Shown here one piece after another: positions 23,238 through 30,198 of a DNA stretch of 64,000 nt (its first letter is position 1; each line of letters starts with the position of its first letter). The stretch lies in the NCBI RefSeq assembly GCF_003334385.1, contig NZ_QOWN01000002.1; one strand, written 5' to 3'. The stretch is from Escherichia coli. GTDB taxonomy: Bacteria > Pseudomonadota > Gammaproteobacteria > Enterobacterales > Enterobacteriaceae. Below the pieces are notes generated by a model. The model did no database searches, was not told where the DNA came from, and was given only the letters and a program-made list of their open reading frames with translations. The position numbers were made by a program, and so were the translations under genes.

Positions 23238-24122
23238 ATGTCTCATTTAAAAGACCCGACCACGCAGTATTACACTGGTGAATATCCCAAACAGAAACAA
23301 CCGACGCCAGGCATCCAGGCGAAGATGACACCGGTACCGGATTGCGGCGAGAAAACCTATGTTGGTAGCGGTCGCCTGAAAGATCGTAAAGCACTGGTGA
23401 CAGGGGGCGATTCCGGAATAGGTCGCGCTGCCGCCATCGCTTACGCGCGTGAAGGGGCTGACGTGGCGATCAGTTATCTTCCCGTGGAAGAAGAAGACGC
23501 TCAGGATGTGAAAAAGATCATTGAAGAATGCGGACGCAAAGCCGTTCTGCTGCCAAGCGATTTAAGCGATGAGAAATTTGCCCGTTCGCTGGTTCACGAA
23601 GCGCACAAGGCGTTAGGCGGGCTGGATATTATGGCGCTGGTCGCCGGGAAACAGGTTGCCATTCCGGATATTGCAGACCTCACCAGCGAACAGTTTCAAA
23701 AGACCTTTGCCATTAACGTTTTCGCGCTGTTCTGGCTAACCCAGGAAGCGATCCCCCTGCTACCGAAAGGTACAAGTATCATCACCACTTCGTCAATCCA
23801 GGCATACCAGCCAAGTCCGCATTTACTGGACTATGCGGCTACGAAGGCGGCGATTCTGAACTACAGCCGTGGCTTGGCAAAACAGGTCGCGGAGAAAGGT
23901 ATTCGGGTGAATATTGTCGCGCCAGGCCCGATCTGGACAGCACTGCAAATTTCCGGCGGACAAACGCAGGATAAGATCCCGCAGTTTGGTCAGCAAACGC
24001 CGATGAAACGTGCGGGGCAACCGGCGGAACTGGCCCCTGTATATGTTTATCTGGCAAGTCAGGAGTCGAGCTACGTCACCGCAGAAGTGCACGGCGTGTG
24101 CGGCGGCGAGCATTTAGGTTAA
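23238..24122 (+). CDS. yghA: Short-chain dehydrogenase/reductase YghA
   Basis: 294 aa. SDR Rossmann motif [10 protein letters not shown] and catalytic YxxxK context. Confidence 0.9.
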
Positions 24123-24127
24123 AAAAA

Positions 24128-24155
24128 TGCCCGGTTGTGAAAAGCAACCGGGCAT
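24128..24155 (+). terminator. yghA terminator hairpin
   Basis: gcccggttg tgaaaag caaccgggc stem-loop right after the yghA stop. Confidence 0.5.
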
Positions 24156-24189
24156 CATTGTGAATTCACTCTTACCTGATGTGGCGAAA

Positions 24190-24390
24190 ACGCCTTATCC
24201 GCCTACAAACGCATGAAGATTCAACATGTTGCAATAGATTTTGTAGGCCTGATAAGCGTAGCGCATCAGGCATTGAGCACCTAATGCCGGATGCGTCGTG
24301 AACGCCTTATCCGGCCTACAAACGCACGAAGATTCAACATGTTGCAATAGATTTTGTAGGCCTGATGAGCGTAGCGCATCAGGCAATTCT
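24190..24390. repeat. Tandemly duplicated REP/BIME cluster
   Basis: Two near-identical ~110-bp units (cgccttatccgcctacaaacgcatgaagattcaacatgttgcaatagattttgtaggcctgataagcgtagcgcatcaggca and its copy), each with REP palindromes. Confidence 0.6.
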
Positions 24391-24393
24391 ACT

Positions 24394-24819
24394 TTACTTC
24401 GCTTTGGCGGTTTCTTCGCCGACCAGACCTATCTTCAGGTAACCCGCCTGATGCAGCGTATCCATTACCTTCATCAACGTCTCGTAATCGACGGTTTTGT
24501 CCGCTCGGAAGAAGATGGTGGTGTCTTTCTTGCCTTCGGTTAACGCATTCAACGCCGTAATCATTGTTTCATCGGTGACCGGATCGTTACCGATAAACAT
24601 CGAGTTGTCTGCCTTCACCGACAGATAAACCGGTTTTTCCGGGCGCGGCTGCGGCGTGCTGGTAGAAGCAGGCAAGTTCACCTTCACATCTACCGTCGCT
24701 AACGGTGCCGCCACCATAAAGATAATCAGCAGAACCAACATCACGTCGATAAACGGCGTCACGTTGATATCATGCATTTCGCCGTTATCGTCGAGGTTTT
24801 CGTTAAGATGCATTGCCAT
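24394..24819 (-). CDS. exbD: TonB-system biopolymer transport protein ExbD
   Basis: 141 aa, single N-terminal TM, MAMHLNENLDDNGEMHDINVTPFIDVMLVLLIIFMV. Confidence 0.95.
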   Translation of the reverse strand: MAMHLNENLDDNGEMHDINVTPFIDVMLVLLIIFMVAAPLATVDVKVNLPASTSTPQPRPEKPVYLSVKADNSMFIGNDPVTDETMITALNALTEGKKDTTIFFRADKTVDYETLMKVMDTLHQAGYLKIGLVGEETAKAK

Positions 24820-24825
24820 CGGATA

Positions 24826-25560
24826 TTATCCTGCGCGTAATTTTTGTGCGACACGAACCGGATGCGCAGCGGCGCTGGCTTCCAGATCCAGGTCACGGCT
24901 TTGCAGCAACAATACCTGCGCTGCAACATCACCCAGCATCGCTTTAAAGCCGCCAATCTGGCGTGCAAATACGTTATAGATAACGACCGCAGGAATCGCT
25001 GCCACGAGGCCGATTGCCGTTGCTAACAGAGCTTCTGCGATACCCGGCGCAACGACTGCCAGGTTAGTGGTCTGCGTTTGCGCGATACCAATAAAGCTGT
25101 TCATGATGCCCCAGACCGTACCAAACAGACCAACGAACGGAGAAATCGCGCCGATGGTTGCCAGATAGCCGTTACCGCGGCCCATTTGACGACCCACTGC
25201 GGCGACCCGACGCTCCAGACGGAAGCTGGTACGTTCTTTAATACCTTCGTTATCGTCGCTGCCTTCTGACAGTTCCAGCTCATTCTGCGCTTCATTGAGC
25301 AAATGCAGGCTTAAGCTTTTGCTACCAAAATCAGCGGCGATATCGTTGGCCTGGTTTAAGGAACGCGCTTCAGCCAGCAGTTGCTGCTCGCGCTTAAGGC
25401 GACGCTTCTGATTGAAGAACTCTACGCTCTTACTGAAGAAGATTGCCCAGGTGACTACGGAGGCCAAAATAAGCCCAATCATCACGCACTTAACGACAAT
25501 ATCGGCGTGCTGATACATACCCCAGACGGAAAGGTCCGTCTGCATTAAATTATTACCCAC
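24826..25560 (-). CDS. exbB: TonB-system proton channel ExbB
   Basis: 244 aa, MotA/TolQ/ExbB family, directly upstream of exbD. Confidence 0.95.
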   Translation of the reverse strand: MGNNLMQTDLSVWGMYQHADIVVKCVMIGLILASVVTWAIFFSKSVEFFNQKRRLKREQQLLAEARSLNQANDIAADFGSKSLSLHLLNEAQNELELSEGSDDNEGIKERTSFRLERRVAAVGRQMGRGNGYLATIGAISPFVGLFGTVWGIMNSFIGIAQTQTTNLAVVAPGIAEALLATAIGLVAAIPAVVIYNVFARQIGGFKAMLGDVAAQVLLLQSRDLDLEASAAAHPVRVAQKLRAG

Positions 25561-30094: not shown

Positions 30095-30198
30095 GCTTTT
30101 TACGCCTCAAACTTTCGTTTTCGGGCATTTCGTCCAGACTTAAGTTCACAACACCTCACCGGAGCCTGCTCCGGTGAGTTCATATAAAGGAGGAACGT

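Follow-up and report, generated by a model that had tools for sequence, protein, structure and literature searches.

The intergenic stretch between yghA and exbD of Escherichia coli holds a tandem dimer of BIME-1 elements, REP222, which very probably acts mainly as an RNA structure of the exbBD 3′UTR, serving there as an exonuclease barrier and an attenuator. The window in which it was analysed is a 64-kb stretch of E. coli DNA that is colinear with MG1655; in 8 kb the two differ at four sites, none of them inside the repeat, and the element is identical to that of K-12 (MG1655 ~3150599–3150808; adding 3126424 to a window position gives the MG1655 coordinate). All four differences (21364, 21596, 23556 and 23772) are transitions, two of which are non-synonymous in yghA (Gly107Ser and Ala179Thr), so that the window is K-12-like and differs from the reference sequence. 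The element is already known, as a catalogued E. coli repeat that has served experimentally as a model for transcripts with REPs: it is named REP222 in EcoCyc (REP222a–d and REPv222e) and is linked to exbB, exbD and yghA (PMC10100675). In the RefSeq feature table of NC_000913.3, there is no repeat entry at REP222.

A repeat search of the window recovered a 72-nt direct repeat (24201–24272 and 24314–24385, 97% identity, 113-bp spacing), preceded by a 27-nt stretch of 81% identity at 112-bp spacing. A 38-nt core is present in exactly two copies in the 64-kb window (24216–24253 and 24329–24366) and in 0 of 100 shuffles. The element as a whole extends over 24175–24384, comprising two units with a 113-bp period in an array of ~210 nt. 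The first-pass annotation had described two nearly identical units between convergent genes; the 72-nt repeat and the twofold core bear out the former, and yghA (+) and exbD (−) do flank the array. It had also given the unit as ~110 bp, at 24190–24390; the units stand, but the period is really 113 bp and a start at 24190 clips the first REP by ~15 nt. Small ORFs over the repeat (40–81 aa) were regarded as arising mechanically from the palindromes. The features of the locus are as follows.

23238–24122, plus strand: coding sequence of yghA (NADP+-dependent aldehyde reductase), the convergent left neighbour (ORF and RefSeq annotation of identical DNA).
24126–24156, minus strand: shared terminator hairpin, 12-bp stem, A7 on one side (terminator scan and SEnd-seq listing).
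24160–24392: 233-bp stretch missing from the empty-site allele, i.e., the whole BIME insert with short non-REP flanks (allele alignment, record spans).
24175–24207, plus strand: REP1, a decayed Y-type with 30/35 matches to the Y consensus, a single-base deletion and a weakened stem (consensus comparison).
24208–24241: L linker 1, 34 nt, with an IHF-type motif ATTCAACATGTTG at 24219–24231 and with CAACATGTTG, a 10-nt palindrome; BIME-1 paralogues share the core.
24242–24271, minus strand: REP2, Z1-type, 29/30 to the published short Z; contains the IS621 target ATCAGGCCTAC.
24272–24285: head-to-head linker, 14 nt, joining unit 1 to unit 2 (pairwise unit alignment).
24286–24320, plus strand: REP3, Y-type, 33/35 to the Y consensus; the REP2–REP3 pair is aligned by Rfam naRNA4.
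24321–24354: L linker 2, again of 34 nt; IHF-type motif at 24332–24344.
24355–24384, minus strand: REP4, Z1-type, matching the short Z at 28/30; it comes first among the hairpins of the exbBD 3′UTR and has the IS621 target.
24394–24819, minus strand: coding sequence of exbD, stop codon TAA at 24394–24396 (ORF and RefSeq annotation).
24826–25560: exbB, following exbD (RefSeq annotation of identical DNA).

The four REP palindromes, typed by comparison with three E. coli REP sequences printed in PMC11208160, alternate in orientation (+, −, +, −) and follow the order Y (degenerate), Z1, Y and Z1. In keeping with the definition of the REP family, they are imperfect palindromes of 30–37 nt with a GCCTAC/GTAGGC tail, close to Y or Z1 sequences, and the alternation of REPs separated by conserved linkers (L, 14-nt, L) is that of a BIME. 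Divergence between the two units is uneven, the Y-REP part being 81% identical versus 97% for the L–Z1 part, and is concentrated in REP1; judged from the sequences, this could stem from decay of REP1 or from gene conversion of the rest. REP1 carries five changes from the Y consensus. Both L linkers contain ATTCAACATGTTG, a putative site that agrees with the IHF consensus WATCAANNNNTTR at 12 of 13 positions; because matches of this grade are expected about once per kb by chance in the window, the motif alone is weak evidence. The yghA–exbD locus is unmentioned in the IHF GeF-seq paper, and no IHF binding at REP222 was found in the accessible data.

BIMEs are divided into three kinds (PMC3333891). 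BIME-1 consists of y and z1 with a long conserved L linker, often with an IHF site, and is found in single copies; BIME-2 consists of y and z2 with a short S linker and is found in tandem copies; atypical BIMEs are multi-copy chimeras of the two. Membership was tested here by homology. A query composed of the Y tail, the L linker and the Z1 tail, taken from a diverged single-unit allele of the yghA–exbD locus, found full-length matches in every E. coli genome, at a median of 32 places per genome. The BIME-1 elements of rutG–ymdF, gyrB–yidB and livF–ugpB align with both window units over the whole Y–L–Z1 length, and the IHF-type core ATTCAANNNNTTG is invariant in all six aligned BIME-1 units, the two window units included; therefore, each unit is a BIME-1. 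The reading of the region as REP/BIME sequence, made beforehand from the bare letters, is accordingly confirmed by the four REP matches, their alternating orientation and the whole-unit alignment to BIME-1 elements.

Each unit has one Y and one Z1 REP and a 34-nt L linker with a match to the IHF consensus, as in BIME-1. The single-copy character of BIME-1 does not hold in the window, where two units stand in tandem, but holds in strains 98197, MFDS1019527 and RMDEC465, whose alleles have one unit; by the scheme of PMC3333891, the K-12 dimer would formally be filed under ‘atypical BIME’. An atypical Y–L–Z2 chimera, with the short Z REPs taken as Z2, was considered and ruled out: the short Z is Z1 because naRNA4 units are Y + Z2 (PMC4550694) and the Rfam naRNA4 consensus has the long Z. 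BIME-2, defined by Y + Z2, a short S linker and tandem arrangement, shares the tandem character with REP222 but differs in the rest, the Z REPs here being short and the tail-to-tail linker being the 34-nt L. In summary, REP222 resembles BIME-1 (also RIP/RIB) in the order Y REP, L linker with an IHF-type motif and Z1 REP within each unit, and departs from it in being a tandem dimer with a 14-nt head-to-head linker, a locus-specific L variant and a decayed first Y REP. In a distant-match search of 5,426 genomes, the K-12 variant of the L linker had no paralogue anywhere else in any genome, the two local copies being the only ones.

The shared terminator hairpin at 24126–24156 is followed by T7 after its 12-bp stem, and this T-run is present only on the minus (exbD) strand (terminator scan). 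The SEnd-seq list of bidirectional terminators gives UUAAAAAAAUGCCCGGUUGUGAAAAGCAACCGGGCAUCAUUGUGA as a 37-nt overlap site of exbB:exbD:yghA in stationary phase, and this site overlaps REP222 by 27 nt (bioRxiv 10.64898/2026.03.23.713779, supplement). In the empty allele, the hairpin stands between A7 and CATTTTTATTT, making a symmetrical bidirectional terminator, with CATCATTTTTATTT standing after the stem. In the BIME alleles, the plus-strand T-rich tract is replaced on the yghA side by GTGAATTC; the K-12 hairpin is still listed by SEnd-seq as bidirectional. A comparison of window 24150–24175 with the empty allele places the insertion within the T-rich tract, which was split such that the U-tract on the yghA side was lost and that on the exbD side was kept. 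With the T-run confined to the minus strand, transcripts of exbBD have to run through the entire array to reach their terminator, and the array is predicted to belong mainly to the exbBD 3′UTR, of ~275 nt by this geometry.

This bears on published work on RNA decay, in which exbB, exbD and yghA were all among the top NaF-stabilised REP222 transcripts, the full-length yghA RNA measured ~1000 nt, and a REP-containing species of ~300 nt was stabilised by NaF, its decay being RNase E-dependent (PMC10100675). The suggestion that such units stabilise upstream mRNA therefore has direct published support for REP222 itself, with the qualification that the mapped terminator puts the repeat more in the exbBD 3′UTR than in the yghA mRNA. 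The Northern work of the same study assigns the REPs to yghA, in contrast to the terminator geometry, by which they lie mainly in exbBD RNA. A yghA RNA of ~1000 nt would fit termination at the hairpin better than an end beyond the array (~1230 nt), and the ~300-nt REP species fits either an exbBD 3′UTR or yghA read-through of ~260 nt; given that the REPs are palindromic, a probe for the REP region could detect either strand. The size of the published 300-nt ‘yghA decay intermediate’ is close to that of the predicted exbBD 3′UTR (~275 nt; window 24119–24393). It should be noted that EcoCyc, describing the same DNA, counts five REPs as opposed to the four REP-type palindromes counted here; the fifth, REPv222e, is probably the terminator hairpin at 24126–24156, as suggested by the 27-nt overlap of REP222 with the mapped terminator.

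Predicted folding of 24115–24400 is, on either strand, much more stable than that of shuffled sequences (z = −7.2 and −8.0). The predicted minimum-energy structure is one long hairpin in which REP4 pairs with REP1, L2 with L1 and REP3 with REP2; local REP hairpins would be the obvious co-transcriptional alternative. The spacer between the exbD stop codon and REP4 is 9 nt, within the 15-nt limit for stop-proximal REPs: according to Liang et al. 2015, as summarised in PMC12306157, REPs less than 16 nt from a stop codon lower translation. REP4 is in this respect like the stop-proximal REP regulators of Liang, Rudd and Deutscher (2015), for example that of nrdAB. At this locus, however, the terminator hairpin of the empty allele is equally near the exbD stop codon, so any effect of stop proximity may not be specific to the REP.

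The copy number of the unit varies among strains, as had been expected of such repeats: comparison across genomes revealed 0, 1 or 2 units. The locus-specific L linker occurs in 3,791 (70%) of the 5,426 complete E. coli genomes searched, at 7,469 places with a median of 2 per genome, which implies roughly 3,700 two-unit and at least ~110 one-unit genomes. Some genomes match this linker at up to four places and may have a duplicated locus. An even sample of 40 genomes searched with the two-unit query yielded 25 two-unit, 1 one-unit and 12 empty alleles, and a second sample of 40, searched with the empty-site query, yielded 23, 3 and 11, respectively, and 3 others. Overall, ~30% of genomes are without the element, a few percent have one unit and about two thirds have two. 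Arrays of more than two units were not found with a synthetic four-unit query, for which 40 of the 40 top-ranked genomes were two-unit.

The empty allele is without the 233 bp of 24160–24392 (record spans of 571 vs 338 bp and of 413 vs 180 bp for two-unit and empty alleles), and the one-unit allele carries 120 bp of those. One-unit alleles are of two kinds. That of strain 98197 combines the SNP of unit 1 (CATG) with that of unit 2 (GATGAG), which is most simply explained by a deletion through recombination within an identical 48-bp stretch of the two-unit allele. Strains MFDS1019527 and RMDEC465 share the insertion point and have one diverged unit there, in which the Y REP is intact and the L linker is closer to the consensus of the family, and by its sequence this allele probably represents the state before duplication; ~18 genomes fall in its identity band. 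In the unit-to-unit alignment, the 14-nt middle linker is similar to the sequence that flanks unit 1 on the left, fitting a junction of tandem duplication. Outside the species, an exact hairpin pattern run over species-representative genomes returned one locus, hence a single outgroup, Escherichia sp. MOD1-EC7003 (a separate species), whose site is empty and whose flanks are 93–96% identical to the window; with this one outgroup, the comparison supports the insertion as the derived state.

Insertion sequences also enter the locus. IS621, an element of the IS110 family with a bridge-RNA recombinase, lies inside REP2 in strain PK8568 and inside REP4 in strain SW071614, two independent insertions at the same position, GTAG|GCC, within the 11-nt ATCAGGCCTAC. 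This sequence is a natural IS621 target (PMC11208160), and the Z1 REPs of the array are natural IS621 targets. In strain EF5-18-41, an IS200C copy separates the yghA stop codon from the hairpin (equivalent to window 24123–24126), the two-unit array being otherwise intact. In 298 genomes the flanks were not joined by the search; of four such cases examined, three were IS insertions and one was sequence divergence only.

Taken as a mechanism, the preferred reading begins with a single BIME-1 unit that would have landed in the T-tract separating the exbD stop codon from the terminator hairpin shared by yghA and exbBD, and would later have duplicated to give the tandem dimer, one-unit derivatives re-arising by recombination between the direct repeats. 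With the T-run terminator beyond the repeat on the exbD strand, the ~210-nt array would be transcribed within the exbBD 3′UTR, and yghA read-through would reach it from the opposite side. The four stable hairpins, or the long REP4:REP1/REP3:REP2 hairpin, would then block 3′-to-5′ exonucleases and partly attenuate transcription, and such a barrier may raise or buffer the levels of the convergent transcripts. In addition, the REP situated 9 nt from the exbD stop codon may dampen ExbD translation, and at the DNA level each L linker would offer a putative IHF-type site. Across the genome, REPs do not alter half-life in one uniform way, the effect depending on context (bioRxiv 10.64898/2026.03.23.713779).

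A doubtful but by no means negligible alternative is that the array is a neutral relic of a selfish repeat, spread by TnpA-REP/RAYT into a permissive landing site and duplicated by slippage or recombination, with any effects on RNA or protein being incidental. The counterpoint to function is that ~30% of E. coli, along with the outgroup species, are without the element and keep a cleaner bidirectional terminator (A7, hairpin, T-rich), which makes the repeat dispensable and possibly neutral to selection. In line with this, the locus is polymorphic for presence, absence and duplication with no fixed state, the terminator of the empty allele is not only intact but even better, REP1 is visibly decaying (30/35), and IS elements enter the array without apparent consequence; variation in BIME copy number between strains, and cleavage and recombination by TnpA-REP in vitro, are documented (PMC3333891). 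A relic would nevertheless have to accommodate the 97% identity of the L–Z1 parts of the two units and the base-for-base conservation of the two-unit allele in type strains of phylogroups A, B1 and E, among them K-12, W and O157:H7, as well as the measurable response of REP222 transcripts in RNA-decay experiments (PMC10100675) and the higher expression, genome-wide, of convergent gene pairs with REPs (bioRxiv 10.64898/2026.03.23.713779).

At the other extreme, the 0/1/2-unit polymorphism might act as a naturally occurring dial on the expression of the TonB energising complex, in which the number of units would set exbBD mRNA stability, the stop-proximal REP would set the ExbD:ExbB ratio, and the insertion would weaken yghA termination through loss of the plus-strand U-tract. 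We regard this as improbable; if it were true, lineages would differ heritably in iron uptake and in colicin and phage sensitivity without any change in coding sequence or promoter.

Less probable still is a role at the DNA level as a BIME-2-type site of gyrase binding and cleavage, relieving supercoiling between convergent transcription units. The position between convergent, inducible operons would suit such a site, and the array is multi-copy, like BIME-2 or atypical BIMEs (PMC3333891). Its composition, however, is Y + Z1 with a long L linker, unlike the Y + Z2 with a short S linker of BIME-2, and strong gyrase binding is ascribed in the sources consulted, PMC3333891 among them, to BIME-2 and atypical BIMEs, BIME-1 being excepted. 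On account of this difference in composition, gyrase binding, which the first-pass annotation had put forward, is left without support.

It is very unlikely that the array encodes a small RNA like naRNA4, which would bind HU and condense the nucleoid. The minus strand of 24246–24316 does match the Rfam model RF02564, marginally passing with 61.0 bits where the gathering score is 59.5, but the model is merely that of a head-to-head REP pair, and the true Y + Z2 pair at 13200–13276 of the same window scores 92.6 bits; the match of REP222 is therefore one of generic REP-pair similarity and not of a specific small-RNA gene. The naRNA4 unit is made of Y, an l linker and Z2, as in REP325, whereas REP222 has in the second place a Z1 hairpin, whose alignment lacks 7 nt of the Z2 of the model. 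Moreover, the role of naRNA4/REP325 itself in nucleoid compaction has been contradicted (bioRxiv 10.64898/2026.03.23.713779), REP325 being described in the same work as a partial terminator and mRNA stabiliser. REP325, a BIME-2-type array at yjdM–yjdN, is thus like REP222 in being a tandem array of REP pairs in a 3′UTR and in the marginal match to the Rfam model; the two differ in that REP325 has six Y + Z2 units with the l linker (PMC4550694) between tandem genes, and REP222 has two Y + Z1 units with the L linker between convergent genes. Finally, beyond the general risk attached to tandem repeats, nothing speaks for the duplication being an assembly artefact, a next to inconceivable explanation given that the two-unit structure is matched without a break in thousands of complete genomes of independent origin and is identical in the large majority of those sampled, many of them long-read and MG1655 and EMG2 among them.

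Several other features of the window were recorded in passing. A separate head-to-head pair of a Y and a long-Z (Z2) REP lies at 13200–13279, downstream of an ORF ending at 13169, and is of the BIME-2 type (92.6 bits to naRNA4). Two further matches reach the Rfam gathering level, an FMN riboswitch at 58178–58326 on the minus strand (120.9 bits) and the ES173 sRNA at 30097–30160 on the plus strand (99 bits).

By itself, REP222 matters little, belonging to a textbook class of enterobacterial repeats at a locus that has been named and used experimentally already. The additions made here are minor: a precise anatomy, according to which the element is a tandem BIME-1 dimer and not a BIME-2; its placement inside the exbBD 3′UTR, upstream of the mapped shared terminator; and a natural allelic series of 0, 1 or 2 units, together with forms disrupted by IS621 or IS200, in more than 5,000 genomes. 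The L linker, being particular to the locus, would permit strand- and locus-specific probes. The yghA–exbD locus is a convenient natural test case for the role of REPs in 3′UTRs, which is a current question.
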